DNA from: Candidatus Abyssobacteria bacterium SURF_5
GTDB lineage: Bacteria; Abyssobacteria; SURF-5
Direction of reading: 5' to 3'
Assembly: GCA_003598085.1 (NCBI GenBank)
Contig: QZKU01000026.1
Coordinates: 7,335-71,334 of the forward strand
DNA length: 64,000 nucleotides
Part shown: piece by piece, positions 966-54,918 of the stretch
How the letters are laid out: each line of letters opens with the position of its first letter
Numbering within the stretch: the stretch's first letter is position 1
Made by a program: the position numbers and the translations under genes
The notes under the pieces: generated by a model
What the model was told of the DNA's origin: nothing
What the model saw: the letters and a program-made list of their open reading frames with translations, nothing else
Databases searched by the model: none

Positions 966-999
966 GGGGACACACTGATCAGTGTGTCCCCCTTTTTTT
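966..999 (+). terminator. Rho-independent terminator (GC-rich hairpin plus T-tract) after the Fe-S protein gene
   Basis: Perfect inverted repeat ggggacacact-gatc-agtgtgtcccc followed by tttttttg, directly after the stop at 946-948. Confidence 0.8.
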
Positions 1000-3091
1000 G
1001 ATTTTTGCCAAACACGAATGCTATCATGAAAGAAATCTGAATGAGAAGGAAAATCTCTTGCCGCAGCTTGATCTCCATGAAACACATGCCGAATATTCCG
1101 CCGAACCTGAAGTAAGAGCCCCACTCTCGCGCCGGCTGATCATATCGTTTCTTTCGATAGCCGCTATCTCGATCCTCTCTTTCCTGTGGTGTCTTCATCT
1201 GGTTCAGCAGGCGCGAAGCCAGGGATTTGTCCTGCAAGAGATCAAGCCGCTGATGGACACGCTCATCGGCTGGGGAAAGTCTCTTTATTGGCTTGGGGGC
1301 CGGCCGCTTTTCGTTCCGGCGATATTAGGTGTTGCCGCGGCGCTCGCAGTGGCAGCATATGCGGCATTTCGGAAGGACTGCGCCGCTCTTGCCTCCAATC
1401 GGCGGCTGCTGATTCTGGCGCTCGCCTTTGCGCTTATGTACATTATCGGCGGCACGTCAAGCTTCGCACTTTATATTGCCGGCATTATCGCCGTCATCCT
1501 CTTGGGCTGGTTCAGCGAGTTTCGAAGGGAAAGCGTCGCTGAGCCGGCGCCCATCGAAAGAAAAGAAAAGGCTCTTCTCGGTATGATTCTTCTGCTGGGT
1601 CTGCTGCTGCGCATGTATCAGGTGGATGTTTTTCCAAGACTCTACACGGCGGATGAGCAACTGCTCGCGCAGGTGGTGCTTGAACTGGGTGAGCGGCCCT
1701 TCGAGTTCTTTTCCGAGCCCCACATCATGAAGCCTCACCTGCTCAGAATTGCAGGGATTCGGCTGGCTTTTATGACACTGGGCACAGGCTTGTTTCAGCA
1801 GCGAGCCGTATCAGTTTTCGAGGGGACCACCACAATTCTGCTTGTGTACCTGTTGGGCCGAAGCCTCTGGGGGAACCGGGCCGGCATGTTCTCGGCGTTC
1901 CTGCTGGCGATTGATCCCTGGCATATCGGCCACAGCAAAGCCGGTGTGCACAATATCGAGGGCCCTCTGTTTCTTGCGCTGTTGCTGCTGTTGATCATGA
2001 GAACCGTACGGCAAGGCAGCATTCGGAATCTCATCTTTCTTGGGGCCGTCGCCGGCGCAACGGTTTACCTCTACCTGTCCTGTGTGATCCTGGCGCCATT
2101 CGCTGTAATTGCCGCCATTGCAGGGCGGTATCGCCAGAACAAACTGAAATCGGTCCTCTTGAAAGAAGCCGTCATCATGGTCGCTGCCGCAGTAGTCGTT
2201 GCCCTGCCATACTTCACAGTCGGCCGCGAAAATATCCGGGAACTGGAATCGTTCTACACAGCGGGCGGAAATTTTCTGACCGCGGCGAAAGAACACGGGT
2301 GGAACCCCCTCTTCGTCCTCTTTGTCAACTCGTGGAATGGCATCGAGCACATAATCAACTGGACGGATCGAAGCATTCACCCTGCGAAAACATTCTATCC
2401 GAATCCGGTGGCGGTCGGCCTGGCTCTTTTAGGTGTAGGTACGCTGATTGGCCTGCGAAAGAAGTTTGAACATGTCCTCGTGCTCCTCGTGATTCCAATT
2501 GCCTGGCTCCCAATGAGCCTGTCATACGGGTTTGCCGAGCGCCGGCTTTTTTCGGGACTGCTGCCTGTTCCAGCGTTGCTGGGGGGCCTTATCCTGGCGA
2601 GGCTGTGGGAGCAGAAGTTCTCAGGATATGCAGCCCGTCGCCTGAGTCGCGCGCTGTTCGTTTCGATTCTCATTGCCGCTGTCCCGCTGACTGCGTTTAT
2701 TGTGTATTCGGATGCCGATCCGATGTCGGGCGGCCGAGTTCACCCGCGGAAGACGGCAGAGTATATCGGCTCGCTCCCGCCGGAATATTCTGTCTTCGTT
2801 TCCAACCCGGTCAAAGACATCCCTTTCCTGGTCTGTCTTGCCAGCTACGATAGATTGAAAGGAAAGGCCGATAATAATGCCTTCAGCTTCGTCTCATTCG
2901 AGATGCTCGATGCGATGGCGGAAAAAATAGCGCTGACGCCCAATGTGGCGGTTGTTATGGGTGTCGGCGCGGGAGAGAGAGAATTTCTGCGGAAGGTAAA
3001 AGCCCTCAATCCCGATTCGGAGATTGTCGAGGCAGACGAGTTCCTTGCTTGTCTGATTCACAAAAACACACCGGACAGGCGAGAGGATTAG
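998..3091 (+). CDS. Polytopic membrane glycosyltransferase, GT-C fold (PMT/ArnT-like). The true start is probably downstream of 998, e.g. TTG 1058 after gagaaggaaaa
   Basis: 697 aa track ORF with more than 10 hydrophobic helices. The first periplasmic loop carries an acidic DE-type motif (FPRLYTADEQ) typical of PMT/ArnT GT-C enzymes. The start overlaps the upstream terminator, so 998 is unlikely to be the real start. Confidence 0.6.
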   Translation: MIFAKHECYHERNLNEKENLLPQLDLHETHAEYSAEPEVRAPLSRRLIISFLSIAAISILSFLWCLHLVQQARSQGFVLQEIKPLMDTLIGWGKSLYWLGGRPLFVPAILGVAAALAVAAYAAFRKDCAALASNRRLLILALAFALMYIIGGTSSFALYIAGIIAVILLGWFSEFRRESVAEPAPIERKEKALLGMILLLGLLLRMYQVDVFPRLYTADEQLLAQVVLELGERPFEFFSEPHIMKPHLLRIAGIRLAFMTLGTGLFQQRAVSVFEGTTTILLVYLLGRSLWGNRAGMFSAFLLAIDPWHIGHSKAGVHNIEGPLFLALLLLLIMRTVRQGSIRNLIFLGAVAGATVYLYLSCVILAPFAVIAAIAGRYRQNKLKSVLLKEAVIMVAAAVVVALPYFTVGRENIRELESFYTAGGNFLTAAKEHGWNPLFVLFVNSWNGIEHIINWTDRSIHPAKTFYPNPVAVGLALLGVGTLIGLRKKFEHVLVLLVIPIAWLPMSLSYGFAERRLFSGLLPVPALLGGLILARLWEQKFSGYAARRLSRALFVSILIAAVPLTAFIVYSDADPMSGGRVHPRKTAEYIGSLPPEYSVFVSNPVKDIPFLVCLASYDRLKGKADNNAFSFVSFEMLDAMAEKIALTPNVAVVMGVGAGEREFLRKVKALNPDSEIVEADEFLACLIHKNTPDRRED

Positions 3092-4797
3092 TACAGCTTC
3101 AGTACCGCCAGGATATTATCGGCGGACTGATCGATGTCATGGTAGATGACATACCTGAACCCCAACGCCCTCAGCCGCTCCCCCTCCTCAAGTGAAAGCT
3201 TTCCCGCTTTCGAGCTCTTGGGAATCAGCTCCCGCCCGTATTCAACCACCTGCGGATCGGTTCGGGAAAGCAGCCCCGCCGGTATCGGCTTCTCATGCAG
3301 TGTCTGATAGTACATATACTTCGCCAGCGCCGGATAGCTATCTGAAGGCAAATCCATCACCGCGAATTCCTGTTCGTCTCGTCCAATGTCCATATAAATC
3401 TTCGGAACCGCCGGCATCTCCTGCATGAATGGAATATTCCACAACTCGATCAGCAGAAGGACGCTGAAAGCCGCTGCAACCATCGTCCCGGAACGAGCAT
3501 TGCGTGAACACGCTTGAATTTTGTCAATGAAATGCTTCAGCCCATAGCATGCTAAAACGAATATCCCGATTTGCGCCGGAACAACGAACCGGTAAGGCGT
3601 CCTCATCACTCCAAAAAACGGCAAGTACTTGTACAGCGCAAGGTACGGCATCGGGATAGCGAATGACCATTTCCCGAAATGCAGGCGCGTCCCGAGCGAA
3701 AGCACCAGGAAGACCAGCAGCATCGCCAGCCAGAATCCGTTTCTGCGCATTGGAGCCTTGACCAGCGCGACAACAGCAAGACCGATAATCGTGAACGTCA
3801 GAAATGTGGCATGGCCGGGAACACCGGAAAGATAATAAATGGACTGCGGCATCAGCCGGAAGAGGAACCGGTAGAAAACGTGCTTGTCCGCCGGCAGAAT
3901 ATATCCGAGTGCGTTCGCGGAAAACAGATCGAGCATCTGCTCCGGCTGTGGTTCAGCCGCGCCTGACCTCATCACCGCGATCAAGAACGGCAGGAGCAAG
4001 AGCCCGCTTCCGGCAAAAAGAATCGAGAACCTGATGAGACTCTCCCGCCCGAACAACTCGTCCCTCCAGAACAGCGCCGAATAAACGAGGAAAAGCGCAG
4101 TCAACAGAGCGAGAAAGTAAACGTACATGTTACAGGTTAGAAAGGTGGCGCCTGCCAGCATCGCGCCGATCAGCGGGTTTCTCCATCTCTTCTCGCGCAA
4201 CGTCTTGAGCAGAAACATCACGTACAAGGGGATAAACCCGGTGCTTAACAGTGCGATGTGCACGATGTGCATGCTGCGGTAGGGAGCGAACGCGAAGGCC
4301 GCTCCCCCGAAAAAAGCAACCAGATTATCCTTTATCAGATATTTCACCAGCGCGAACATCCCCAATCCCGCAATAACAAACGAGAGAAGCGATGCAATAT
4401 TACATCCCAGAATGATTCCGTGTGGCTTGCTCATGAGGAGTTGGAACGGAATGGTCAACAGGCTGTTCAACAGAGTCAATTCGTGCAGGACCAGACTCGC
4501 GCCGTTGGGATAAAAGAGATAGGTTGTACGGAATGGATTCGTCCTCAGGTCGATAAGCGCCTTCTTAACCCACCACGCATCCCACATGACGATGTTATAA
4601 TCGGAGCTGCTCCCGATAGGACTTACAATGACGCCTGCACTGAGATCGGTAACCTGGGGATAAGTGTAAAGAAGCGTGATCGCCGCATAGAGAAGAGCCG
4701 CCGTAAGGTGCGGCGTCCAGCGAAAAGGAGCTCCGGATCGCGAATCTTCCAAAACCTTATCCTGCACTTCTAAACTTGGCTCTTGAGCGCTCTGCAC
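3088..4797 (-). CDS. Large polytopic integral membrane protein, possibly a GT-C-type glycosyltransferase (family uncertain)
   Basis: 569 aa with many TM helices; ends 4 nt inside the upstream GT-C gene; no recognisable soluble catalytic domain. Confidence 0.5.
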   Translation of the reverse strand: MQSAQEPSLEVQDKVLEDSRSGAPFRWTPHLTAALLYAAITLLYTYPQVTDLSAGVIVSPIGSSSDYNIVMWDAWWVKKALIDLRTNPFRTTYLFYPNGASLVLHELTLLNSLLTIPFQLLMSKPHGIILGCNIASLLSFVIAGLGMFALVKYLIKDNLVAFFGGAAFAFAPYRSMHIVHIALLSTGFIPLYVMFLLKTLREKRWRNPLIGAMLAGATFLTCNMYVYFLALLTALFLVYSALFWRDELFGRESLIRFSILFAGSGLLLLPFLIAVMRSGAAEPQPEQMLDLFSANALGYILPADKHVFYRFLFRLMPQSIYYLSGVPGHATFLTFTIIGLAVVALVKAPMRRNGFWLAMLLVFLVLSLGTRLHFGKWSFAIPMPYLALYKYLPFFGVMRTPYRFVVPAQIGIFVLACYGLKHFIDKIQACSRNARSGTMVAAAFSVLLLIELWNIPFMQEMPAVPKIYMDIGRDEQEFAVMDLPSDSYPALAKYMYYQTLHEKPIPAGLLSRTDPQVVEYGRELIPKSSKAGKLSLEEGERLRALGFRYVIYHDIDQSADNILAVLKLY

Positions 4798-4828
4798 AAT
4801 CCGGTTTTTCCTCAGATATCCTCAAATC

Positions 4829-4856
4829 TTGACAGGAAACGCAAGGCTATTATACC
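4829..4856 (+). promoter_or_regulatory. Possible sigma-70-like promoter for the GNAT gene in the divergent intergenic region
   Basis: cTTGACAggaaacgcaaggctaTTATACc: a perfect -35 with an imperfect -10 at 16-17 nt spacing. Confidence 0.3.
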
Positions 4857-5009
4857 ATTTTCGTAACATTTGATTGCCATGTTCAGACCGGGCTCCGACG
4901 TACGCCTTCGGTCCGTCATATTTCAATAGAACCACCGTCAGCGATTCCCGTCTCTAGCGCAGAACCCGCGTTTGCCAATGGTGAAAGAGAAGCGGCAGGG
5001 TCAGGATCA

Positions 5010-5636
5010 ATGGAATTTGTCCCGATAACAGAAAAAGATTACGGCCGGATAGCAGATCTGCACCAAACCTGTTATCCCGGCGACTTTCTGCCCAGCTTCG
5101 GGTATCGTTTCCTTGTCGCGCTATACGATGCAATGTTCAAAGCAGACGCTGTCTTCGGATTCGTCGGCAAAGAGGACGGCGAGATAGTAGGCTTCAGCCT
5201 GTGTACGGCCGATGCGGATCGATTGTTTCCCGCCACCTTGCGAAAAGGGCTCCTCAAGCTCGCATGGCTTGCCGGACTGAGACTGCTGCAAAAGCCCTCA
5301 ATCCTGAAAAAACTTTTCGAAACGTTCCTCTACAAGTCGCGCGCAAGCCTTGAAGAGGTAAACGCAGAGATGATGCTCTGGGCGATTGATCCGAAGTGCC
5401 GCGGGCGCGGCCTCGGGACGGAACTGTGGGAGGCATGCGAGAGGGAATTATTGAAGAAACGCATAGAACGGTACAAAGTTACCGTCTACGCCGATAACAA
5501 ACCTGCAAACAGCTTCTATAGAAAAAAGGGCTTCAGGCTGGTGCGCGAATTTGTACTTTACGGCAAGAAGTGGAACCTGTACGTGGGCAGGATTGCGCCC
5601 GATAGCTTTCTTCGTCTCACCAAACAAACCAGCTAG
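5010..5636 (+). CDS. GNAT family N-acetyltransferase
   Basis: Acetyl-CoA binding motif RGRGLGTELWEACE...YRKKGFR, GNAT motif A; 208 aa. Confidence 0.8.
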   Translation: MEFVPITEKDYGRIADLHQTCYPGDFLPSFGYRFLVALYDAMFKADAVFGFVGKEDGEIVGFSLCTADADRLFPATLRKGLLKLAWLAGLRLLQKPSILKKLFETFLYKSRASLEEVNAEMMLWAIDPKCRGRGLGTELWEACERELLKKRIERYKVTVYADNKPANSFYRKKGFRLVREFVLYGKKWNLYVGRIAPDSFLRLTKQTS

Positions 5637-5674
5637 TCGAGCCGCCTGCACGAGCTTTCCTGCGGCGCCCTGAT

Positions 5675-6778
5675 TTATCTCCTCGATCTGCGAATCATTT
5701 CACAGATGTAATCGATATCGTCTTCAATCAGCGTCGGCGACGACGGCAGGCTGAGTCCGCTCGAAGAAAGCATGTCGGAGACGGGGAACTTTCTGCGCGT
5801 GCCGTACATCGGCAGCAAATGCATGGGAATGAAAACCGGCCTCGTATCGATGCCGCCTGCTCTCAGATGCGCCGCGAGGTCGCCAGGGCCGGGCCCGAAC
5901 GTCTTCTCGATCAGGATCGTGTATAACCAGAATATGCTGCGAGCCCACGGCCGCTCCGGAGGAAGAACGATCCCCTCGATGCCGCCCAGACGCTCCGAAT
6001 ACAGCTTTGCCACGCGCCGCTTCGCCGCCAGAATACCGCCGATCCTCTTCATCTGCGCGCGGCCGACGGCAGCTTGCATGTTTGTCATTCGATAATTATA
6101 GCCGATCTCCGGATGAAAATATCTTCTCTTGCCATCCATCGAATGGTCGCGCAGGAAACGAATGCGAGCATCCACTTCCGGATCATTGGTTACAACCATT
6201 CCGCCTTCGCCCGTCGTAATAACCTTGTTCCCATAAAAGCTGAAACAACCGATATCGGCAAGCGGGCCGACGCGCTTTCCCTTATACAGCGAGCCGTGCG
6301 CCTCGGCGGCGTCCTCGATTACTTTCAGGTCGTGTTCGCGCGCAATCTCCACCACCCGCTCGATATCGAACGGGTGGCCGTACAGATGAACGCCGACGAT
6401 CGCCTTCGTTCGCCGCGTAATAGCCTTCTTTATCAGTTCCGGATCAATCGTCCAGGTTTCCTTCTCGACATCCACCAGAATCACTTTCGCGCCGGTGTAG
6501 GCCACGCTGTTTGCCGTGGCGACAAAGGTGAGATCGGGGACGATTACTTCATCGCCTCTTCCAATTCCCAACGCAACCAGCGCAAGGTGCAGCGCCGCGG
6601 TCCCACTCGATGTCGCCGCCGCACATTGACAGCGGCAGAACTTTGCAAACGTACGCTCAAACAGGTCGATGTGTCTTCCCAGCGATGAAATCCAGCACGT
6701 GCGGATGCATTCCTCCAGCAGGTCCAGTTCTTCCTGCCCCAGCAATGGCTCATAAACCGGATAATGCTTTTTCTTCAT
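5675..6778 (-). CDS. DegT/DnrJ/EryC1/StrS family PLP-dependent sugar aminotransferase (ArnB-like)
   Basis: N-terminal GxEExxxxxExI region, AATSSGTAALHLAL, DEVIVPDLTFVATAN, IEDAAEAHGS and SFYGNKVITTGEGGMV (PLP lysine region); 367 aa. Confidence 0.85.
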   Translation of the reverse strand: MKKKHYPVYEPLLGQEELDLLEECIRTCWISSLGRHIDLFERTFAKFCRCQCAAATSSGTAALHLALVALGIGRGDEVIVPDLTFVATANSVAYTGAKVILVDVEKETWTIDPELIKKAITRRTKAIVGVHLYGHPFDIERVVEIAREHDLKVIEDAAEAHGSLYKGKRVGPLADIGCFSFYGNKVITTGEGGMVVTNDPEVDARIRFLRDHSMDGKRRYFHPEIGYNYRMTNMQAAVGRAQMKRIGGILAAKRRVAKLYSERLGGIEGIVLPPERPWARSIFWLYTILIEKTFGPGPGDLAAHLRAGGIDTRPVFIPMHLLPMYGTRRKFPVSDMLSSSGLSLPSSPTLIEDDIDYICEMIRRSRR

Positions 6779-8418
6779 AGCGGTTTCTGCAGTTCTCCCG
6801 GCGCGATGGGATCAAGGATGCGTGTACGATAGATACTGACGGAATCGTTCTTGTATATCGACTCCAGGTACGGCGCTTGGTCGGGATCGAAATCGCCCAT
6901 GGCGCGTTCTTCGCGGCCGTAAAAGATAAAGCCGATGCCGCCGGCCCGGAGGAAATTCTCTCTGTCGCTGTCCGACGTGGTTCCAGTAAAGACCCGATGC
7001 GCCGAACGGTACCGCGCATCATGGGTGGGATGGTCATACTGCCCCAGCCACGCAGGTTTTCCGGTCATGCCGGGGATATAGTTGCCAACGACGTCCCCCG
7101 AAAGAACCACCCCTTCCCCCGTCTCGCCCTTCAAAAAACGGAGCGCCTCATACTCATCCTCGGTCAGCGAAAATGCTTCCGGATGCGTCTTCAGGCGTGA
7201 TATCCGATCAATTATATTACAGAACGTACTGGGGAAAGTAAAGGTAACCAACAGCCCGGCCAAAAGAAACGCGGCCGCTTTCCTCTTCTTCTCCGAATCC
7301 GTCCACTCGAACCCGAGCGCCGGCAAAACAGCCTGAAAAATGCCGCGTGTCGCCAGAACCGCCAGCGGCAGTTGCAGCCCAAGAACCGCCCGCGCCTCCT
7401 GCTGCAGGAGGGGATACGAGTAAAGCAGAACAAAATTTGTCGCCGTCCAGCAAATAAGCATCAGGTCTCCGCTTCTCAGGAGCCGACTCTTCAGGAGGAA
7501 GATTATGTAAGCCAAACTCAAAATCAGGAGCGGCGCAAATCCAACAAGATACGTCGCCACACCGGGAGAGCGGACAGGCACTTGCGGCAAGAGAGCCGGA
7601 TAAAGCAGCGAAAGGCGAAGATAGTATATGACCGGCCATATGGCGACCGCGCCGAAAACGATGGAAACCCGCAGCGGCCGGCTATGCTTCCCCCCAACAA
7701 ACGAAATTCCCGCATACACCGCAAGCGCCGCCATCACCACAACCAGGTTCACGACGTGAATGAAACCGAGCACCAGTCCGCAGACACCCGCGCCGAAGGC
7801 CGGCGCCAGCTTATCGCCTGAGACAGCCTTCTCAATAAGAGCGAAGCATGCCGCGATCAGGATAAGCGCAAGCGCGAGGTGCGGAAACGACATGTGGGTA
7901 AAGAACGAGGTCGCTTCGGGCGTCGCGATGTCCGCCGGAGCGAATGGCATGCTTCCGGTGCGGTAGTACGTAATCATCTGGATCCAGCCGGCCCCCGCCC
8001 CGAAACAAATCATAAGCAGACCCGCGATTCGCTCGCGCGTCGATTCGACAAAACGGCCAATAAAATACCACGCAACCGGCACGAAAAGAAAAATCGCGGC
8101 CGCCCTGGCCGCATGAAAAGCCGCCACATGGCTGAGCCCGAAAACATGTGCAGCTCGTCCGAGCAGCGCCCAGAAGAAACCGTGGTAAATCCTGTCAAGC
8201 TCTCCGCCGGCGAATTTATTCTGCAGCAGCAGCTTCCAATCATCGGCCTGCTCCATCATCATGAAATAGAAATTCGAGTCGCGGACGCCGGCCGCGATGC
8301 CCATGAACCTGCGGCCGGGCACGTGGTGGAGCCAGCCGTACAGCAGGGGGACGTTGGACAGCGCCAGGAGTGCGGCGGCTACGGCCACGAGCAGGATTGC
8401 TTGTTTTCTGGAAGACAC
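6775..8418 (-). CDS. Polytopic integral membrane protein, candidate GT-C-type glycosyl/aminosugar transferase (family uncertain). Its stop overlaps the DegT start by 4 nt
   Basis: 547 aa with more than 12 TM helices and a 4-nt overlap with the DegT gene, suggesting translational coupling of an aminosugar pathway. Confidence 0.5.
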   Translation of the reverse strand: MSSRKQAILLVAVAAALLALSNVPLLYGWLHHVPGRRFMGIAAGVRDSNFYFMMMEQADDWKLLLQNKFAGGELDRIYHGFFWALLGRAAHVFGLSHVAAFHAARAAAIFLFVPVAWYFIGRFVESTRERIAGLLMICFGAGAGWIQMITYYRTGSMPFAPADIATPEATSFFTHMSFPHLALALILIAACFALIEKAVSGDKLAPAFGAGVCGLVLGFIHVVNLVVVMAALAVYAGISFVGGKHSRPLRVSIVFGAVAIWPVIYYLRLSLLYPALLPQVPVRSPGVATYLVGFAPLLILSLAYIIFLLKSRLLRSGDLMLICWTATNFVLLYSYPLLQQEARAVLGLQLPLAVLATRGIFQAVLPALGFEWTDSEKKRKAAAFLLAGLLVTFTFPSTFCNIIDRISRLKTHPEAFSLTEDEYEALRFLKGETGEGVVLSGDVVGNYIPGMTGKPAWLGQYDHPTHDARYRSAHRVFTGTTSDSDRENFLRAGGIGFIFYGREERAMGDFDPDQAPYLESIYKNDSVSIYRTRILDPIAPGELQKPL

Positions 8419-8468: not shown

Positions 8469-9815
8469 TCATTTCCCGCTGACGACTACATCGGTGACGA
8501 GAAACGAGGGCGAGCCGTATCGGCTGTAGAATTTCAGGTTTCGCGCGACCGCCTCGATATTCATCAGGACATCCCTTACGTTGCCCGCAATGGTCGTCTC
8601 TCGCACGGGGAATGCAGGTTTTCCGTTCTCGATCCACAGCCCGCTTGCGCCGACTGAGAAATCGCCTGAGACCATGTCTATCGTGTGCATGCCCATCGCA
8701 TCGGTCACTAAAAAACCGCGCGAGCAGTTATCGCACAGATTGTCAGGATCGGTGTCGCCCGGAACAAGATAAAAATTCGTCGCGCCGACTTCGGGCGTCG
8801 ATGCATATGAGGAGCGGACGCCGTTGCCGGTTGATTCGGTGCCGCCTTTTGCCGCCGTATACGTGTCGTAGAGGAAGCCCTGCAGGACACCCGCCTCAAC
8901 CAGAACCGTCCGCTTCGAAGCTACTCCCTCTCCATCGGCCGGCGCGGGATACAGCCCGCGTTCAAACATGCCGTCATCTATAATCGTGACGTTCCGGTTT
9001 GCCATTTGCCTGCCGACTTTATCGGCGAACAGCGACTTGCCTTTCTGCACCTGGTCCGCCATGAGCGCGTGCCCGATTGCCGCAACGAACTCGGCCGCGA
9101 CCGGAGCATCAAGGATAATCGGAACCTTCGCCGTCTCGATTTGCCGCGCCCCGAGCAGACTGAGCGCGCGCCTGCTTGCATTCCTGCCGACAGGCGCGAC
9201 ATCGAGCGCGCTGAAATAGAAGGAGTGATCGAAATCCCACCCCATTTGGGCGTCTCCTCCTTCTTCAGCGACCACCATCACGCTCGCGGCGCATGAGGTG
9301 CCCCGACTCCACAGCGATATCCCCTTGCTGTTCGCCAGGTGCGCCTCATAGCTTGCATCTGAAGCGGTCGCCTGCCGGACCTTCGTTATCCGCTTGTCGA
9401 CTGCCCGCGCGGCGCCTTCGAGATTGAGCGCGCGCTCGATCCGGTCATCAAGTCCCACGTCTTTAAGCTGCTCGTCAAACTTCTCTATTTCTATATACCG
9501 CGGAGATGGCCTCGGAAGCACGTTGAATTCATCCGGAGAACTCGATTCCGCATTCGCCAGGGCTTGCCTGGCCGCCGATTCTATAGCGGAATTACCCAGA
9601 TCGGACGTATACGCAAACCCCAGCCGATTCGCGACAAGCACGCGCACTCCAATGCCCGAGCCTTCGCGCACCTTCTGGCTTTCAACCTTGCCGCCGCTCA
9701 CTTCGACCGAGACCGAGCTTGTCCGGTTGAAGAATCCTTCGGCCTCCGTGGCGCCGGCCGAAAGCGCCGCTTCAATGGCCAGCTTTACCTTTCGCTCATC
9801 CGATTTTCTCGTCAT
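8469..9815 (-). CDS. TldD/PmbA family metalloprotease
   Basis: 448 aa with typical PmbA/TldD N-terminal (KLAIEAALSAGATEAEGFF...SVSVEVSGGKVESQ) and C-terminal (GDFSVGASGLWIENGK) signatures. Confidence 0.8.
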   Translation of the reverse strand: MTRKSDERKVKLAIEAALSAGATEAEGFFNRTSSVSVEVSGGKVESQKVREGSGIGVRVLVANRLGFAYTSDLGNSAIESAARQALANAESSSPDEFNVLPRPSPRYIEIEKFDEQLKDVGLDDRIERALNLEGAARAVDKRITKVRQATASDASYEAHLANSKGISLWSRGTSCAASVMVVAEEGGDAQMGWDFDHSFYFSALDVAPVGRNASRRALSLLGARQIETAKVPIILDAPVAAEFVAAIGHALMADQVQKGKSLFADKVGRQMANRNVTIIDDGMFERGLYPAPADGEGVASKRTVLVEAGVLQGFLYDTYTAAKGGTESTGNGVRSSYASTPEVGATNFYLVPGDTDPDNLCDNCSRGFLVTDAMGMHTIDMVSGDFSVGASGLWIENGKPAFPVRETTIAGNVRDVLMNIEAVARNLKFYSRYGSPSFLVTDVVVSGK

Positions 9816-17621: not shown

Positions 17622-18443
17622 TCAGCTTGAACGAGAAAAATCCGGTAACGAGCATCCGTTCTTGATGTAATTCACCGCATTCCGAAATACCGCCACGCCC
17701 ATTCCCTCGCGCGGGGTTTTTTCGCGGGTCCAGCGTGGATGATTGGTCTGAAAAAGGTACGCCTCCGGATGAGGCATCAGGCCGAAAATCCGGCCCGTCA
17801 AATCGCAGATGCCCGCAATGCCGTCTTGCGAGCCGTTGGGATTGTACGGGTATCCGTCTGCTTTCCCCTCTTCATCCACATATTGAAGCACGACGTGTCC
17901 GCCCGCGTGCAGCCGTTCGAGCACGGTTTCACTCGAAGTAACGAGCTTGCCCTCGCCATGACGGACGGGCAGGTACATTCTATCAATCCCTTTTGTGAAA
18001 ATGCAACGCGAATTCGGGTTCGCCGCCAGATAGACCCAGCGGTCTTCAAACTTGCTCGAATCGTTAAACGTCAGCGTCACCTGCTGATCGCCGTATTTCC
18101 GGTCGAGCGCCGGCAAGAATCCCATCTTGACAAGAACCTGGAAACCGTTGCAGATGCCGATGATCAATTTTCCGTCTTCAATAAAACGGAGCAACTGATC
18201 CCGCAGATGCTGTATCAGCTTGTTGGCGAGCACCTTGCCCGCGGCGATATCATCTCCGTATGAGAATCCGCCGGGAATCGCGAGAATGTCATAATCGCTT
18301 AATGATTTCCCGCCCGGCTCGATCAGGTCGTTCACGTGCACCCGCTCGGCGCGACCGCCGACCCGACGCATGTTAAAGGCATACTCGGTCTCATAATCGC
18401 AGTTGATGCCGTAGCCGGTAAGCACTAATACGCTTGGTTTCAT
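17622..18443 (-). CDS. purQ: Phosphoribosylformylglycinamidine synthase, glutaminase subunit
   Basis: Class-I glutamine amidotransferase with GICNGFQ (catalytic Cys) and HPE near the C-terminus; 273 aa. Confidence 0.85.
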   Translation of the reverse strand: MKPSVLVLTGYGINCDYETEYAFNMRRVGGRAERVHVNDLIEPGGKSLSDYDILAIPGGFSYGDDIAAGKVLANKLIQHLRDQLLRFIEDGKLIIGICNGFQVLVKMGFLPALDRKYGDQQVTLTFNDSSKFEDRWVYLAANPNSRCIFTKGIDRMYLPVRHGEGKLVTSSETVLERLHAGGHVVLQYVDEEGKADGYPYNPNGSQDGIAGICDLTGRIFGLMPHPEAYLFQTNHPRWTREKTPREGMGVAVFRNAVNYIKNGCSLPDFSRSS

Positions 18444-18478
18444 AATTCTAATTCAAAGATTTGATATAACCTTGAAAG

Positions 18479-20215
18479 CTAACTCTTAATAAATCTTTTG
18501 TAAAAGACCCAAGTGTTGTGAAAACCTCTCCGTTTATTACGATTTGCGCCTCTGAAAATGACAACATTGATTCCAATTTTTCGGCAGATAGGGCAATTAC
18601 ATCTTTCCCAAGGCTTCTCAGATAGAAGTTTTTCATATTTTTCAGCAAAATGATTGTCTTCACTTTGACGTTCTAACAAAGGTCCGTATCTATTTAATGC
18701 AATAAGAGTTTCTTCTGCTCCTTTTGGATTGTCTCCAAAAACACCCAAGGAGCGAAGACAATTTTCTTCAAGTATACGAGCTTTCTCTTTGGAAAGTTTC
18801 TTATCTGCTACGGCTTCCTGTATCGCTTTGGAATCACTAAACGGTACCCGAACGGCCGCATACCATGTTCCGTCAACCGCCAAATAATTTTGATCCGATC
18901 TTAGCCAAGCCTTCCGAAAATATGAGGCAGAATCAAAGCTAGATACTCCCAATGTGCGAAAAAATGGTTGTAGCTTGGGCCGAAGGATCCCAAATAGATG
19001 CAGCCATAAGTTTTCTTCGTGCCCTCTTGTTCGCTCTTGCAGAGCTTTCCTGACTGCGCCCACAATCTCGATTATTTCTGAATCAGAGCGTGGTACTAAT
19101 CCACCCAAAGCTATATGCCGATATCCCATATCTATGTACTGATGCAAGCAGGATATATAGGAGCGGACACCAACGCCCTGAATGACGCCCATAGGTATAA
19201 AAGAATAGTTCTTTTTCTTCCATAGTCCAATGAATTCAGCAGCGTTTTCTGTTGTCAGTTTTACTCTTTCGTACCTGGCAGATAGACTCAATATGCGCTT
19301 ACGTGAACTTCCATCTTTATGTTTTTTTACTATTTCTTGCAATGGTATATGGTCTACTGACGCGCCTATATCAAAGCCGTATTTGTGGTACATATCTAAA
19401 GCTTCCATTGTGGAAAAAGGAGGTTTACTCTCCGCTGTATATGAAAATGCCCCACAATCTCCAAACAGAAGCATGTTATCCGGGAGTTGTAGCACCTCTC
19501 TGAGGTTTCCAGATGAGCACCTCCCCTTGGCCATTCTATAAATTGCACCTTTACCCATATTCATGTGAGATAAACTTAAAAGCACGCCATCATAAGGGGC
19601 ATCTTTGCCGTATATTTCATGGGCGTATGCTTTACGAGACTCACCAGCCTTTATGGGTTCTTTGCCTTCGTCTGGAATAAATGGCTCATCAACGTAATCG
19701 TCCCAATCAGGAAAAAAATAAATATATGAGCGGATGCTTTTACCTTTTTTTTCGATAGATGCTGTCTTAGATGGCAGTTTTTCAAGCCATGATTTCATGG
19801 CTTTCATTTTCATGCCGATGGGTCCTTTTGCGTAAGTAAACTTCGCTTTTGGGAAGATTTTCTCAATCCCCCTGACCGCATTAAGATAATCTGCACCTAA
19901 ATTCAGGAATATACCCTCCGGCTGTGATAGCTTTTGAAGCGCTGATAGGACCCTTTTGTTAAATGATGTGGCAGAATGCGAGTCAAAACGCTGGTCGTAT
20001 TGACTTATTATAGTTGTAGCATCGATCAATCCATATTTGGCTGAGAGAATCTTAATCTGTAATCCCGGAGGCCAGCCTTTAACGAGAAGCATTTTTCTTA
20101 GAACTCGAAAGTTAACTCCATCATACAAGCACATGGCCGGAGCTTTTATTACCTGCGGTAATTTAGTTTTTGAACAGGCCACTATCAATAAGTGACCTTC
20201 GAGGTGAGTTGTCAT
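18479..20215 (-). CDS. TGT-family (queuine/archaeosine tRNA-ribosyltransferase-like, DpdA-like) base-exchange enzyme with a roughly 230 aa N-terminal domain of unknown function
   Basis: The C-terminal approx. 350 aa carry the TGT hallmarks. LFGDCGAFSY aligns to the TGT Asp-nucleophile loop (DSGGFQ). GVSSFDSASYF aligns to the second catalytic Asp loop (GxDMFDCV). The C-terminal zinc site CNCPICx22H matches TGT CxCxxC...H. The protein is Lys-rich, AT-rich codon usage; 578 aa. Confidence 0.72.
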   Translation of the reverse strand: MTTHLEGHLLIVACSKTKLPQVIKAPAMCLYDGVNFRVLRKMLLVKGWPPGLQIKILSAKYGLIDATTIISQYDQRFDSHSATSFNKRVLSALQKLSQPEGIFLNLGADYLNAVRGIEKIFPKAKFTYAKGPIGMKMKAMKSWLEKLPSKTASIEKKGKSIRSYIYFFPDWDDYVDEPFIPDEGKEPIKAGESRKAYAHEIYGKDAPYDGVLLSLSHMNMGKGAIYRMAKGRCSSGNLREVLQLPDNMLLFGDCGAFSYTAESKPPFSTMEALDMYHKYGFDIGASVDHIPLQEIVKKHKDGSSRKRILSLSARYERVKLTTENAAEFIGLWKKKNYSFIPMGVIQGVGVRSYISCLHQYIDMGYRHIALGGLVPRSDSEIIEIVGAVRKALQERTRGHEENLWLHLFGILRPKLQPFFRTLGVSSFDSASYFRKAWLRSDQNYLAVDGTWYAAVRVPFSDSKAIQEAVADKKLSKEKARILEENCLRSLGVFGDNPKGAEETLIALNRYGPLLERQSEDNHFAEKYEKLLSEKPWERCNCPICRKIGINVVIFRGANRNKRRGFHNTWVFYKRFIKS

Positions 20216-21033
20216 TTTTTGTAAATGAATTTGCGCTTGTAATTGTTGGTTAAGTTAAATTGATTATTCGCTAAAATTAAATGTGGAAGTTCCTCAAAGG
20301 ATGATATTGTAAAATGTGGACAAATATCCCTTACCGCCGGCATCCAAAATGGCTGAAAGCCACCAGCGAAATAGATAGTGTAGAATCCAGCTTCCTTAGC
20401 AGGCGCTATATCTCGATCAAGCTGGTCTCCGACCATGTAATTTGACTGAGATGCAACATCAAATTCTGCAAGGATCTCTTGATATATCCTCACTTCTTTC
20501 CTTGCAACTAGGATTTTGTGGATGTAATTAGAAAGCTCATACTTATTCAGTAATAATTTGCACTTATCCCGGTTACCTTCCGTTAGGATAACCAGAAGCC
20601 CACCTCGCTGGTGTAATTTCTTTACGCCCTGACGCACCCCAATCCGTAATGGCGGAATTTCCGATTTCAGTTTTTTAATGAACAGCATCTCCATTTCGTT
20701 AATAAAATCTCGGCCCAGCACATCTGTTCCTGTTCTTACTGCTTCTCTCACCGACACGAGGGGAGAATGTCCCGTCAGAGCTAGGGCTAGGGCATTTATT
20801 AGCAATCGCGCAGGATATTCCAAATTATAATTATGCAGTCGCGCTAAATTTTGATCCATCCTTCTCAGAAACGAAAGCTTATCATCCGAGGGAGCAGTAA
20901 CCTTCAAATGCTTTTCGATCTCGGAAAGCAAAATCAATTGGCTTTTCGCATACACCAAATCAGTATCCCATAATGTATTATCTGCATCCAAGACCACTAG
21001 CACTTCTCGGTTCCTTTTAGATTTTGCCTTCAT
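20212..21033 (-). CDS. HAD-superfamily hydrolase/phosphatase. The track ORF extends to 21129; the start is placed at Met MKAKSKRN to avoid overlap with the upstream gene
   Basis: HAD motif I VVLDADNTLWDTD (DxDxT), motif II ILTEGN, conserved Lys, and motif IV GDQLDRD; 4-nt overlap with the TGT-like gene. Confidence 0.72.
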   Translation of the reverse strand: MKAKSKRNREVLVVLDADNTLWDTDLVYAKSQLILLSEIEKHLKVTAPSDDKLSFLRRMDQNLARLHNYNLEYPARLLINALALALTGHSPLVSVREAVRTGTDVLGRDFINEMEMLFIKKLKSEIPPLRIGVRQGVKKLHQRGGLLVILTEGNRDKCKLLLNKYELSNYIHKILVARKEVRIYQEILAEFDVASQSNYMVGDQLDRDIAPAKEAGFYTIYFAGGFQPFWMPAVRDICPHFTISSFEELPHLILANNQFNLTNNYKRKFIYKK

Positions 21034-21053
21034 ATGAACCCTACTTGAAAAAG

Positions 21054-21746
21054 CTACAATGTCTCTGGGAAAACAAACATCAATCCACAAATGACTATCC
21101 ACAAAACAAAAACGATTGTACTTAGCCACAACATAAAAACCCCCAGTTGAAGGGTTTGCAGCTTAATTCGAATTTTATAAGCTATTAAATAAGCCTCATG
21201 AATGTAATGCTTTATATACAGCAATTGAAGTTGATTACTGCAATTGTCGCAAAATGCTGCTGCCCAACCTCTGGGGGTAGCCTCAATTATCTTTGGAAAG
21301 AACAGGAAGGAGGCTGGATTTTTCAAGTCTGCACTTTTCGGAGGTGAACCTTTCGACCAATCATGAGGTACGTTAAATCGTGGTCTAACTGACCAAATTA
21401 TGAAAGAAGCTCCTGAAACTACCAACAGACAGAAGAGACCGAATACGGAATAGAAAAGCCACAATGTCCAACTCCACATTTGATAATTCATCAATGACCC
21501 ATTGTCGTCTTTGGGAAGAAGAGCCACAAAAATTGCTCCTGCGAGAGCGCTTAAGAACGCGGTTGCTGTCAATATCCGGTTGGCCTTTTCGTCTTCATAT
21601 TCCGTAAGGTGCTTTACCTCCTCGAAAGAGGTTTTCGCAAAACTTAGCAGAGCACCAAGGTCTTCTCTTGCAGGATCAAGATTCTTCAGTTCTGAAAATA
21701 TGGGCTCTGAAATCTTCCGGCTTTCAGAAGGGCTAGCCTTAGCCAT
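21054..21746 (-). CDS. Small integral membrane protein (about 60 aa cytoplasmic N-terminus plus 3 predicted TM helices), a candidate membrane effector of the island
   Basis: Hydrophobic segments ILTATAFLSALAGAIFVALL, WTLWLFYSVFGLFCLLVVSGASFIIW and LGVFMLWLSTIVFVLWIVICGLMFVF; no enzymatic motif; AT-rich. Confidence 0.5.
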   Translation of the reverse strand: MAKASPSESRKISEPIFSELKNLDPAREDLGALLSFAKTSFEEVKHLTEYEDEKANRILTATAFLSALAGAIFVALLPKDDNGSLMNYQMWSWTLWLFYSVFGLFCLLVVSGASFIIWSVRPRFNVPHDWSKGSPPKSADLKNPASFLFFPKIIEATPRGWAAAFCDNCSNQLQLLYIKHYIHEAYLIAYKIRIKLQTLQLGVFMLWLSTIVFVLWIVICGLMFVFPETL

Positions 21747-21791
21747 TGATCTCTTTGTCCCTCCCTTGTCTTCCGTTATTCCTTCTCATTA

Positions 21792-22976
21792 TTATGGGAC
21801 TGTTGGCTTGGATTGCTTTTGAGCAGGACAAAAATTCTTGAAATCACATGCTGTGCAGGTTCTAATATTCTGATTAGTCTTCCAGCATTTTCTGATAGCT
21901 ACTCCAGCAATTTCTGCAAGCACGGAAGCCTCAATTTCTTCAACAGTTTGATCAAATCTGGATAAACTAGCTCCTATCGCACTTTTATTCACGGGAATAA
22001 TTCTTATTGAGCGATTTTCTTTGAACGTCCTAGAAAGACTAGGTAAATTGCTGCGTCGGTTCCAGCGTTGGATATTTTCTAGGTCCTTGCCTGTTGCCAT
22101 TATATCAGTTTGGCCTTGGTTGATATCGTTCTTAAGTGCTAGCATATCTTCAATTGATAAAGCTAATTCATTTATATATATGAGTATACCCGCTATTATT
22201 TGCTTTGCGCCCACCTGTTGTGATCGTAGCCAGGAATAGGTGAGAATCTGCCATTCGTGATGTTTCCACGTTTCGTCAACAAAAGAAGGGCGGCGCATGC
22301 CTTTGTAATCGACAATGATTTCATATTCATCAAGGGAAGAAACTTTGAAGTAATGCTGAACATCTGAATGCTGATTCAAATAATGCAGAAGCAGACTTCC
22401 AGATGGAGCATTTACAATGCTAACAGAGCTTATGACATCAATAACGCCCTTCATTCCATAATAATTTGATCTGCTAAGATTGGGATGATAACTTGGCATG
22501 TCTCGACTGCACTTCAATTTCACTTCTGCCTCGGCAATTATTGGAAACAGATGCATTCCCCATGTGTTTATGGCCATTTCTGCTCGCTGGCTAGCAATAA
22601 GTTTATGTGGATGATTGGCGTCGGGACAAAACCCTGGTGTCGTTGCAGAAGAATCAAATGGACAAAAAAGATTTGGCGGAGGTGGAAGACCTCTCGCGAT
22701 CAATCTATCATTAATTTGCGCTTCGACATTACGGATGTCTGATTCCCATAGCCACGGAAATCTTCTCTTTTTTGGCTCGTCACGCCATTCACGATACGCC
22801 TCTTCCATCAATCCATGGATAAATTCACCAAACCACAACTGAACCGGAGTCGATGGTGGGAGGGACCCTTTATTGTAATATCTATACTGAAGGCCGCATG
22901 TTAAGAATGCCAACAAGTCACCCGTCAAGCTGTATTCAGGAATACTATACGGTTTTGGTCGTACAGAAAGAAACAT
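21792..22976 (-). CDS. Cas4/RecB-like PD-(D/E)xK nuclease with a 4Fe-4S cluster cysteine set
   Basis: N-terminal C...YRYY motif (LTCGLQYRYY) typical of the Cas4/AddB nuclease domain. Core MKGVIDVI (Asp) plus IVDYKG (D-x-K). C-terminal Cys triad CTACDFKNFC. 394 aa. Confidence 0.68.
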   Translation of the reverse strand: MFLSVRPKPYSIPEYSLTGDLLAFLTCGLQYRYYNKGSLPPSTPVQLWFGEFIHGLMEEAYREWRDEPKKRRFPWLWESDIRNVEAQINDRLIARGLPPPPNLFCPFDSSATTPGFCPDANHPHKLIASQRAEMAINTWGMHLFPIIAEAEVKLKCSRDMPSYHPNLSRSNYYGMKGVIDVISSVSIVNAPSGSLLLHYLNQHSDVQHYFKVSSLDEYEIIVDYKGMRRPSFVDETWKHHEWQILTYSWLRSQQVGAKQIIAGILIYINELALSIEDMLALKNDINQGQTDIMATGKDLENIQRWNRRSNLPSLSRTFKENRSIRIIPVNKSAIGASLSRFDQTVEEIEASVLAEIAGVAIRKCWKTNQNIRTCTACDFKNFCPAQKQSKPTVP

Positions 22977-22982
22977 TTGCTC

Positions 22983-25331: not shown

Positions 25332-25350
25332 AGATGCACTTTTTACAACC

Positions 25351-28300: not shown

Positions 28301-28380
28301 CTGTAGGTATTAAGATCAATCACGGTTACCGCCGGTACTTTACCTTCCCTGTCCCCGAAACTATTCGCCCGATAGTCCAA
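25351..28380 (-). CDS. purL: Phosphoribosylformylglycinamidine synthase subunit PurL with N-terminal PurS-like domain(s) fused. The annotated start is TTG; an alternative GTG at 28323 sits 2 nt after the purM stop
   Basis: AIR-synthase-related domains (SFGDREG..., PurM-like repeats) with an N-terminus resembling PurS (KPGVTDNVGKTSREAMIDI); 1009 aa. Confidence 0.85.
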   Translation of the reverse strand: MDYRANSFGDREGKVPAVTVIDLNTYRIEVGLRRDQFDAAGDAIRKNIVEDLHIAVDDARLIRVYTLLTSLRCDDADMLRTHLFADPVIDVSTLDQPLASDFSWVIEIGFKPGVTDNVGKTSREAMIDIFGERADGSTVFTAKQYVLRGRLERAQVERIAGGLLANGLIEQWRIADADEFRRSGGISLPLPLAGTPQPVHVKAFDLAVSDQELIRISREGILSLSLDEMRVIRNYFRSENAIRDRSRYGLSNQPTDVELECIAQTWSEHCKHKIFNAFIDYEDEQGRRQINGLFKTYIRRSTDEISKRVPWLVSVFHDNAGVIRFNDRWNLVMKVETHNSPSALDPYGGAVTGIVGVNRDPFGTGKGCRLIFNVDTFCFAPPDYDKPLPPRLLHPKRIFKGVHRGVRDGANQSGIPDVNGSILFDDRYAGKPLVFCGTGGLMPKEILGEPAHEKTALPGDLIVMTGGRIGKDGIHGATFSSEELHSESPTSAVQIGDAITQKKMTDFLLEARDLGLYRAITDNGAGGLSSSVGEMARFSNGCRIELEKAPLKYKGLQPWEILLSEAQERMTLAVDPEKIDRFLELARRRDVEATVLGTFADSGKFEVLYESKVVAHLDMDFLHEGVPRMNLQARWKAPKHEEPDLPEPQDYNRLLEQMLARLNVCSKESFVRQYDHEVQGLSALKPFIGSSNDGPGDAAVLKPLYDSYEGVVVASGICPRYSDLDTYHMTACAIDEAVRNAISVGGRLGYLAGLDNFCWPDPVQSEKTPDGYYKLAQLVRSNMALYDYCTAYDVPCISGKDSMKNDYMIGDIKISVPPTLLFSVLGRIEDVRKVVSMDVKRPSHLVYVVGVTKNELGGSEYFAHHGFIGNSVPRVNSQLARQIYSRVSDAIDRRLIASCHDCSDGGLGVALAESAFAGGFGITADLSAVPQPEPLRADYLLFSESQSRFVITVPPRKAKEFEQMMDGVPFARAGKVTRSPLLVLKNGRQKILSADIFQLKRAWQQPLNW

Positions 28381-33143: not shown

Positions 33144-33947
33144 TCAAGCTTCTTTCAGGGGCGGGTTCCCCTTGGCTTCCTTCATCTCCAGCATCGCGCG
33201 GCGAACCCGTTCCATCAATTCATTTCTGCTCTCATACGTGTATTGTGACGCGTCAATCGGTTCGCCAAAGATCACCCTCACGCGCCCCGGACGAATGCGC
33301 CACGTCGTCTTCGGCAGTACATGGTACGTCCCCTCGATGACAACCGGAATCACCGAGACCCCCGCTTTCACTGCAAGCACGAACCCGCCTTTCTTGTATG
33401 AACCGAGGCTGCCGTCTGGGCTGCGGGTGCCTTCCGGAAAAATGAGGAGCGGCATTCCCGCCCGTACCATTTCTGCTGCGCGATCAAGGCTGCTGAACGC
33501 CTGGGCCCGGTCGCCGCGGTCAATGCTGACATACCCGGCCGCACTCATAATCCAGCCGAAGATCGGGATTTTAAACAGGCTTTTTTTGGCGACGATCCGG
33601 AATTGCTGCCGGACTTCCTTTATCAGGACGGGAATATCAAAGTGGCTGTTATGGGTGGACATGATGATAAAGGAGCCGCCGGGCGGGATGTTCTCGCCCC
33701 CCCTTGTGTCTACTTTGACGCCGCATGTCCATAACAATAGCCGCGCCCACGTCGCGATGAACCAGTAGCTGGCGTTGCCTTTCGGGTTGATTAGAGCGAA
33801 AAGCAGGCAAGGAATTCCGAGTATTGTTGTATACAGGCCGATGAGGAAGACATACATCGCGGCCTGCGCGATTCCGGTGCGCATACCCCGATCCACATCT
33901 GCGGCAGCGCCTGCGGAATGACTCAATAGACCTCCTTCTTCCTCCAT
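33144..33947 (-). CDS. plsC: 1-acyl-sn-glycerol-3-phosphate acyltransferase (lysophospholipid acyltransferase)
   Basis: Acyltransferase motifs HNSHFD (HxxxxD) and FPEGTRS; N-terminal TM helix. Confidence 0.8.
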   Translation of the reverse strand: MEEEGGLLSHSAGAAADVDRGMRTGIAQAAMYVFLIGLYTTILGIPCLLFALINPKGNASYWFIATWARLLLWTCGVKVDTRGGENIPPGGSFIIMSTHNSHFDIPVLIKEVRQQFRIVAKKSLFKIPIFGWIMSAAGYVSIDRGDRAQAFSSLDRAAEMVRAGMPLLIFPEGTRSPDGSLGSYKKGGFVLAVKAGVSVIPVVIEGTYHVLPKTTWRIRPGRVRVIFGEPIDASQYTYESRNELMERVRRAMLEMKEAKGNPPLKEA

Positions 33948-36197: not shown

Positions 36198-36389
36198 CAG
36201 AAACTCTTTTCCTTCTGGCGCTGTAAGTGCTTGAACGCGAGAATGAGCGACGGGGAATCTGGATGCGCCGGATAACCTTTGCGAATGGCTTCGCACCTGA
36301 CATATGCTGAATGGCGTGCAGCAGATATGGCTACATAGTCTCCATGTTATCACAGTTCACGGAATGATGACAATGGGGTGTCGCCGAAT

Positions 36390-53298: not shown

Positions 53299-53308
53299 CT
53301 TCACAAAA

Positions 53309-54871: not shown

Positions 54872-54918
54872 AATCAACGGCGACGGCGTCGAAGCATCAA
54901 TCGATGTCGGAGAGCGCA

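Follow-up and report, generated by a model that had tools for sequence, protein, structure and literature searches.

A gene cluster of Candidatus Abyssobacteria bacterium SURF_5 that joins GT-C-fold membrane proteins with amino-sugar enzymes: a candidate extracytoplasmic glycosylation module

Gene content and layout of the locus

We analysed a stretch of 64,000 nt from contig QZKU01000026.1 of Candidatus Abyssobacteria bacterium SURF_5 (hereafter the window, whose positions supply all coordinates), in which a gene cluster at 998-8418 encodes three polytopic membrane proteins, termed A, B, and C, together with a sugar aminotransferase of the DegT family and an acetyltransferase of the GNAT family. 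All of these genes, which were recognized in a preliminary description made from the DNA letters, are present, and families or folds can now be assigned to their products. The cluster combines glycosyltransferase C (GT-C) folds, two of them in families that lack a database model, with a cassette of putative amino-sugar enzymes, and it is discussed here as a candidate module for glycosylation outside the cytoplasm. Its features, with the border on either side, are as follows:

966..991 (+): strong hairpin terminator, 11-bp stem with 7 GC pairs, then a T-run
998..3091 (+): A, GT-C glycosyltransferase, Pfam PMT_2; maximal open reading frame (ORF) 697 aa, likely start TTG 1058
3088..4797 (-): B, GT-C-fold membrane protein, 569 aa; family without its own Pfam model
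4798..5009 (no strand): divergent intergenic region between B and GNAT, 212 bp, with a sigma-70-like site inside
5010..5636 (+): GNAT acetyltransferase, 208 aa; PF00583, acetyl-CoA motif
5675..6778 (-): DegT/DnrJ/EryC1-family sugar aminotransferase dependent on pyridoxal phosphate (PLP), 367 aa; PF01041, K185
6775..6778 (-): ATGA overlap of the C stop codon and the DegT start codon, read as ctATGAag
6775..8418 (-): C, GT-C-fold membrane protein, 547 aa; no database model
8469..9815 (-): PmbA/TldD-family metalloprotease, Pfam PmbA_TldD domains

The terminator closes a ferredoxin-like gene (115-948) and forms the left border of the cluster. For A, the TTG at 1058 is the likelier start and is preceded by GAAGGA. 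A and B are convergent, with stop codons that share 4 nt, and GNAT and DegT are likewise convergent, with a 38-nt gap between them, while the strand of C also carries, upstream of it, the PmbA/TldD gene and the trp operon. The 4-nt overlap that had been reported between DegT and a large polytopic protein was read directly as the ATGA at 6775-6778, and it is a predicted translational coupling of C and DegT. A consensus match to a sigma-70 promoter, TTGACA-18-TACCAT at 4829-4858 (+), is a candidate promoter for GNAT. Rfam and tRNA scans of the window returned nothing.

Fold and family of the membrane proteins

A is the only one of the three membrane proteins that current hidden Markov models (HMMs) place in a family. 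It matches PMT_2 (PF13231) with 44.6 bits, above the gathering cutoff of 26.1 (E 2.3e-11), reaches 23.2 bits on the STT3 model (PF02516), under the cutoff of 24.5, and has a weak match to STT3B in the PDB. About 13 hydrophobic segments are found in A, and an Asp-Glu pair (D219-E220) stands in what its topology indicates is the first outside loop. Neither B nor C matches a Pfam or NCBIfam model or a PDB sequence; PMT_2 in particular matches neither of them, and the ArnT model NF009784 (GT83) matches none of A, B, and C. Pairwise BLASTP among the three proteins gave nothing significant, and PDB sequences searched by phmmer or hmmsearch with B, C, A1, and A2 yielded nothing or noise. A match to diacylglycerol kinase (E 0.087) was dismissed as hydrophobic noise. 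The transferases had been called unfamiliar in the preliminary description.

Structures of B and C were predicted from alignments of 26 homologues each, with a predicted local distance difference test score (pLDDT) of 87.4 and a predicted template modelling score (pTM) of 0.89 for C, and a pLDDT of 87.9 and a pTM of 0.89 for B. The polytopic core matches solved GT-C enzymes, for which the following pairs of figures were obtained (listed after the C and B models, in two columns that carry no labels):

STT3B: 22.9, 21.5
AfAglB: 22.5, 19.3
AftA: 21.8, 17.5
AftD: 15.8, 19.9
ALG12: 20.4, 16.9
Pmt2: 20.0, 17.1
Pmt4: 19.4, 18.5
ArnT: 18.5, 16.5
PglB: 17.7, 17.5

Profile comparisons link the proteins in part. 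The B family aligns with A across the membrane core (88% probability, E 3e-6), and the C superfamily aligns with the B family over the last helices and the C-terminal domain (97% probability, E 9e-11); nothing was found between C and A. Judged by these profiles, B is remotely paralogous to C in the C-terminal half. D47 of C is invariant in alignments of 26 and of 44 C-family sequences, D163, W324, and R343 are likewise unchanged across members with 20-29% identity, and the B family has D66 as its invariant Asp. In the models, D47 and D66 each sit where the helix of the first outside loop begins (outside being assigned from topology), and B further carries an RTPxRF motif near residues 399-404. 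All three membrane proteins are very probably GT-C enzymes. The preliminary description had taken them for GT-C enzymes and named transporters as the contrary case, and the folds, together with the score of A over the PMT_2 threshold, uphold its view.

The fold of C resembles that of oligosaccharyltransferases (OSTs), including their C-terminal globular (CC) domain, which is found in C. A profile of 44 C-family members finds the AglB structure 3vu0 by sequence with a marginal E of 0.0098, in agreement with the fold match. Neither C nor 69 other members of its family match the STT3 HMM (PF02516). In the family GT66, the WWDYG motif reads the +2 Ser/Thr of the N-glycosylation sequon. This motif is not in C: the SWWDYGN segment of AglB (3vu0) aligns with the family consensus aSpetGn, which is SGDVVGN in the C of the window. 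As modelled, C is STT3/AglB-like in its membrane core and C-terminal globular domain, without the sequon-reading motif.

When clustered at 50% identity, the C family amounts to 7398 clusters for E <= 1e-3 and to 2885 for E <= 1e-30. It is very large in Chloroflexota, Dormibacterota, and candidate phyla, and its members are labelled 'hypothetical protein' in the sources. Among 70 members scanned, none convincingly reaches a Pfam model, and Pfam scans of 26, 26, and 44 family members gave only scattered sub-threshold matches for the C family (DUF6798, Dpy19, and DUF2206). The literature searched yielded no description of the B or C families, which is absence of evidence only. A metagenome search with a single protein returned only one fragment, of 82 residues (L090; such numbers denote loci of the comparative set).

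The aminotransferase and the acetyltransferases

DegT matches PF01041 with 412 bits (E 3e-123) and keeps the PLP lysine, K185, within the segment SFYGNK. Since this lysine is present, the protein is taken to be an aminotransferase and not a ColD-type dehydratase. It passes none of the NCBIfam equivalog models with which it was compared:

LegC family, TIGR04181: 358.7 bits, cutoff 420
PseC, TIGR03588: 283.7 bits, cutoff 423.5
ArnB, NF008658: 222.7 bits, cutoff 631

The nearest solved relative in the PDB is the Caulobacter GDP-perosamine synthase 3bn1 (E 6e-102), with ArnB at about 1e-53. An assignment as an ArnB orthologue was ruled out on the shortfall against the ArnB model and on the closer kinship with GDP-perosamine synthase and LegC. 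By sequence, DegT is closest to enzymes that aminate sugars linked to guanosine diphosphate (GDP) at C4 of a 4-keto form. GDP-linked 4-keto sugars are the substrates of the two best characterised relatives, a weak pointer to a GDP-4-amino-4,6-dideoxyhexose as the product.

The GNAT protein matches PF00583 with 60.7 bits (E 2e-16), and its acetyl-CoA pyrophosphate-binding motif (R/Q-x-x-G-x-G/A) is RGRGLG, at residues 131-136. It has no close kinship to characterised sugar N-acetyltransferases, and its matches to WecD and PseH are weak and far under their cutoffs. A GNAT that is 45% identical stands in the same position and orientation in L009, and in these two loci, the window and L009, the gene lies on the opposite strand. 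In most relatives, the slot is filled instead by a hexapeptide-repeat acetyltransferase of 250 aa, present in six loci (L001/L012, L003/L004, L010, L011, L091, and L093) and weakly similar to PerB (E 4e-6). Because two unrelated folds fill the same slot, N-acylation of the amino group would be a selected or required step.

The hexapeptide acetyltransferase of L003 (12737-13495) has a strongly hydrophobic N-terminal segment at residues 30-48, and it may be anchored in the membrane and act at the membrane surface.

Conservation of the cluster

The close clade comprises 12 distinct loci with C proteins that are 44-71% identical, from metagenome-assembled genomes (MAGs) labelled Abyssubacteria, Lindowbacteria, Poribacteria, or Hydrogenedentota, or unclassified. 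Across these loci the conserved core order is PmbA-C-[DegT-acetyltransferase-(GT2)]-B. C, DegT, and the acetyltransferase occur together in 8 of the 12 loci, where DegT orthologues about 70% identical follow C. The ATGA overlap of C and DegT is found in four loci (the window, L009, L011, and L093), recurring across lineages that share about 50% identity in C. As the inverted GNAT of the window breaks the ancestral C-DegT-acetyltransferase-B operon, B would need a promoter of its own within 4798-5009.

A gene for a GT2 glycosyltransferase completes the cassette in several relatives. L011 and L091 have C, DegT, acetyltransferase, GT2, and B in this order on one strand, the GT2 being 255-264 aa long. 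The orthologous GT2 of L003/L004 and L093 is found a few kb farther downstream, adjoining a prepilin peptidase gene, and in L003/L004 it is also divergent from the orthologue of A. The best PDB match of this cluster GT2 is the Pyrococcus furiosus Dol-P-Man synthase (DPMS; E 9e-34), followed by ArnC (E 8e-17). Its best NCBIfam match is PgfS (E 8e-21, far below the cutoff), followed by ArnC, AglJ, and dolichyl-phosphate hexose transferase, all of them sub-cutoff. DegT, acetyltransferase, and GT2 are jointly absent from L008 and L092, where C abuts B. Their loss together in these loci marks the three genes as a donor-synthesis cassette set between a core GT-C pair, and the amino-sugar genes are an accessory cassette.

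A more distant clade, with C homologues 23-29% identical from Dormibacterota, Chloroflexota, Eisenbacteria, and others, carries the arrangement GT2-GT2-C in about 35 loci. Two tandem DPMS-like GT2 genes stand immediately upstream of the C homologue on the same strand (loci within L032-L087). GT2-GT2-C is an uncharacterised operon conserved across several bacterial phyla, and in L034 (8405-11503) genes for a polysaccharide deacetylase and a WecG/TagA transferase lie directly upstream of it.

Membership of A in the cluster is less general. Its orthologue is found only in L003/L004 among the other close-clade loci, where it lies beside the divergent GT2, and scores 43 bits on the model 'flippase activity-associated protein Agl23', below the cutoff of 126. 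A may be a separate unit, a polyprenyl-phosphate-hexose-dependent enzyme that works independently, and its donor is probably a polyprenyl-phosphate hexose.

Wherever a close-clade locus has sequence upstream of C, the PmbA gene comes directly before C in the same orientation, and the gap between them is nil in L091 and L092. PmbA was set aside as a functional partner, its adjacency being indistinguishable from trp-operon synteny; its place next to C may be inherited synteny with the trp operon.

Several single loci show further features. Genes for an ADP-ribosylglycohydrolase and a GH2 glycosidase follow B in L008, L011, L091, and L092, with the cassette present or not, and no equivalents of these two were identified in the window, where no search was aimed at them. 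In L007 (10001-13404; CP070779, a Hydrogenedentota MAG), a truncated C homologue is followed by a Y1 transposase gene, there is no DegT, acetyltransferase, or B, and the cluster seems to be in decay. The B orthologue of L093 (9442-10966) is split into two ORFs by a frameshift or an assembly error.

A proposed pathway and its alternatives

We lean, with modest confidence, towards a reading of the cluster as an extracytoplasmic glycosylation module of the 'three-component' or Arn type. Folds, motifs, gene coupling, and co-occurrence are the direct results, and the following steps are what we infer from them. In the cytoplasm, DegT would aminate a nucleoside-diphosphate-linked 4-keto-6-deoxyhexose, by homology most likely GDP-linked and perosamine-like, that is supplied by a 4,6-dehydratase encoded elsewhere. 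GNAT, or the hexapeptide enzyme in relatives, would then N-acetylate the amino sugar, a step that the non-orthologous replacement in this slot supports. A Dol-P-Man-synthase/ArnC-like GT2, seen in the orthologous clusters only, would load the sugar onto polyprenyl phosphate, and the lipid-linked sugar would be flipped across the membrane. At the outer face of the cytoplasmic membrane, C, B, or both, by virtue of their predicted fold, would transfer the sugar to an acceptor by means of a conserved Asp, D47 of C and D66 of B, in their first outside loop; candidate acceptors are an envelope glycan, a lipid, or a protein. Since C and B are co-conserved remote paralogues, they may act sequentially or as a heteromer. 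Heteromers of this kind include Pmt1-Pmt2 and EmbA-EmbB. A monophosphate-type donor is suggested by the family-wide partnership with DPMS-like GT2 proteins, which is a hallmark of three-component systems (PMC11127046).

Several results weigh against this pathway. In the 64-kb window, tblastn and Pfam scans found no polyprenyl-phosphate GT2, and the window ORFs scanned include no 4,6-dehydratase, dehydrogenase, or epimerase. No flippase of the GtrA, SMR, or MATE type is present in the window cluster or the annotated orthologous clusters. In L008 and L092, C and B remain adjacent without DegT, acetyltransferase, and GT2, and L013 has a solitary C; the amino sugar therefore cannot be the sole donor of C and B. 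A accompanies the cluster in only 2 of 12 loci (the window and L003/L004), which counts against its membership. All close-clade loci also belong to one lineage that has kept the trp-PmbA synteny, so that conservation could in part be phylogenetic inertia. Finally, OSTs, which are the best structural matches of C, use pyrophosphate-linked oligosaccharides, not monophosphate-linked monosaccharides.

Some of the same facts would be expected if the amino-sugar genes were neighbours by synteny and nothing more, with DegT and the acetyltransferase feeding a cytoplasmic glycan pathway (O-antigen, capsule, or S-layer glycan) and with A, B, and C working independently on polyprenyl-phosphate-hexose donors. 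The cassette-free C-B pairs and the solitary C fit such an arrangement, as do the distant C-family loci, which lack DegT with the sole exception of L026, the confinement of the DegT-bearing loci to one lineage in which the trp-PmbA synteny is also kept, and the general richness of the stretch in GT-C-like genes. However, the stop/start overlap of C and DegT recurs where C proteins are only about 50% identical, DegT, acetyltransferase, and GT2 come or go together at precisely the junction of C and B, and the acetyltransferase slot was refilled by an unrelated fold instead of being lost; we consider chance neighbourhood rather unlikely. We think it highly improbable that the membrane proteins are non-catalytic, whether as transporters, as flippase-associated proteins like Agl23, or as polymerases or ligases. 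The sub-threshold Agl23 match of the A orthologue would speak for such a role, and it is opposed by the GT-C fold and by the invariant residues at catalytic positions. The transporter version was dropped on the fold evidence.

The resemblance of C to STT3, taken with an enzyme pair like PglE and PglD, would also suit a pgl-like system of en bloc transfer, in which C would be a divergent OST that moves a polyprenyl-pyrophosphate-linked oligosaccharide to protein, and the reducing-end sugar, similar to di-N-acetylbacillosamine, would come from DegT in the role of PglE and from the acetyltransferase in that of PglD. Yet C has SGDVVGN at the position aligned with WWDYG and no match to the STT3 Pfam model, and no cluster contains a PglC-type phosphoglycosyltransferase, a cytoplasmic GT-A/GT-B assembly enzyme, or a Wzx/PglK flippase. 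The consistent partner is a GT2 of the monophosphate type (DPMS/ArnC-like), and en bloc transfer by C seems to us improbable. A more far-reaching version of the three-component pathway is that C represents a very large, unrecognised bacterial branch of the STT3/AglB OST lineage, with at least 7398 clusters at 50% identity and no Pfam or NCBIfam model, that has retained the membrane core and C-terminal globular domain of OSTs, has lost WWDYG, and has changed over to polyprenyl-monophosphate monosaccharide donors from DPMS-like GT2 proteins. In Abyssubacteria, such a C would act with B, possibly as a heteromer, to add an N-acetyl-4-amino-4,6-dideoxyhexose (N-acetylperosamine-like) to an envelope protein or glycan. 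We offer this as a speculation that we doubt more than we believe; if true, it would amount to a new CAZy family that might connect en bloc OSTs with single-sugar GT-C enzymes in evolution.

Comparison with known systems

The Arn (Pmr) pathway of lipid A modification consists of ArnB, ArnA, ArnC, ArnD, ArnE/F, and ArnT. Like it, the cluster has a DegT-family aminotransferase and a putative N-acylated amino sugar, a GT2 (here in orthologous clusters) that would load polyprenyl phosphate, and a final GT-C transfer at the outer face of the inner membrane. The differences are that DegT reaches 223 of the 631 bits needed on the ArnB model and is closer to GDP-perosamine synthase and LegC, that acetylation by GNAT or a hexapeptide enzyme takes the place of formylation by ArnA, that ArnA, ArnD, and ArnE/F are not in the cluster, and that its GT-C proteins are not GT83/ArnT. 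A search for arnA, arnC, and arnD homologues, as the preliminary description had proposed, found none in the window ORFs scanned, which also lack Epimerase, Formyl_trans, and Polysacc_deac domains; a polysaccharide deacetylase is encoded only in the distant locus L034. The ArnB/ArnT-like logic first suggested for the locus is supported: it gains from the DPMS/ArnC-like GT2 of orthologous clusters, from the GT2-GT2-C loci, and from the refilled acetyltransferase slot, with the caveat that DegT is not an ArnB orthologue.

Three-component systems consist of a polyprenyl-phosphate sugar synthase, a flippase, and a GT-C enzyme, with GtrA/GtrB/Gtr*, CsbB/GtcA/YfhO, GacI-L, and the Citrobacter ORF12-15/GT136 system as examples (PMC11127046). 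The cluster would resemble them in that a DPMS-like GT2, seen in orthologous clusters, and one or more GT-C proteins would use a polyprenyl-monophosphate sugar, a pattern that the GT2-GT2-C operons also fit. Unlike them, it has no recognisable flippase gene, contains two remotely paralogous GT-C proteins with a third alongside, holds an aminotransferase and acetyltransferase cassette inside the operon, and draws on GT-C families without a database model.

Relative to STT3, AglB, and PglB (GT66), C is shorter by about 150-300 residues, has neither WWDYG nor similarity to the STT3 HMM, and is partnered with a monophosphate-type GT2 and not with an assembly line for pyrophosphate-linked oligosaccharides. 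The GDP-perosamine/N-acetylperosamine pathway (GMD, Per, and PerB; Caulobacter and Vibrio O-antigens) provides the closest solved relative of DegT in Per, and the Per/PerB pairing is mirrored in relatives that couple DegT with a hexapeptide N-acetyltransferase. In contrast to that pathway, no GDP-mannose 4,6-dehydratase was found nearby, the similarity to PerB is weak, and the product would pass to a lipid carrier and a GT-C enzyme instead of a cytoplasmic glycosyltransferase. The Pgf system of Streptococcus mutans comprises the GT2 PgfS, the GT-C-like membrane proteins PgfM1 and PgfM2, and the epimerase PgfE. In general outline, and not by sequence comparison, it likewise brings together at a single locus two GT-C-like membrane proteins, a GT2 (here that of orthologous clusters), and sugar tailoring, which is done by an epimerase in Pgf and would be done by an aminotransferase/acetyltransferase pair here. 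As we read it, the cluster works like the Arn and Gtr/three-component systems and belongs to none of these, its proteins falling outside ArnB, ArnT, LegC, PseC, and STT3.

GT-C enzymes decorate bacterial envelopes, including lipid A, O-antigens, teichoic acids, arabinogalactan, and glycoproteins, and affect resistance to antibiotics and phages. Two of the three enzymes described here, B and C, belong to families that current HMM libraries miss, and the DegT-acetyltransferase-GT2 cassette provides a concrete donor prediction for an otherwise orphan GT-C pair. An STT3-like architecture devoid of WWDYG also bears on the relationship between OSTs and single-sugar GT-C enzymes. The cluster introduces no new principle: its logic would be that of the Arn and Gtr systems, carried out through unmodelled GT-C families with an embedded amino-sugar cassette.

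Other features of the window

A fourth GT-C gene (36390-38093, minus strand) belongs to the PMT/PMT_2 family and is partly ArnT-like, with 144 bits on NF009784 (cutoff 567). It is surrounded by envelope genes, which encode an acyltransferase (33144-33947), a metallophosphoesterase (35250-36353), and an AsmA protein (38881-40995). Because of this separate ArnT-like gene, the organism is taken to have other machinery of the lipid A type, and nothing ties the A/B/C cluster to lipid A.

We also identified a low-GC island at 18450-25350 (GC 0.41-0.46 against 0.55-0.59 in its flanks), between a purQ-like gene (17622-18443) and a purL-like gene (25351-28380). Encoded there are a DpdA-like DNA transglycosylase (PADLOC DpdA, E 2e-102) with a fused DUF6884 domain, as well as a HAD hydrolase, a PycTM-like membrane protein, a Cas4-like PD-(D/E)XK nuclease, and a UvrD/GajB-like helicase. 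The region is probably an acquired island for defence or DNA modification.

A further group of genes begins with a hexapeptide acetyltransferase (52738-53298) that is 30% identical to the cluster acetyltransferase of L003. It continues with an ORF of nine transmembrane segments (53135-54871), a sulfatase-fold protein (54919-56331), an ORF with at least 14 transmembrane segments (56300-58504), and a membrane ORF of 532 aa (58458-60056) that is weakly similar to the ArnT-like protein described above (E 2e-4). The three membrane ORFs have no Pfam match, and the region at 52738-60056 is possibly a second envelope-modification cluster.

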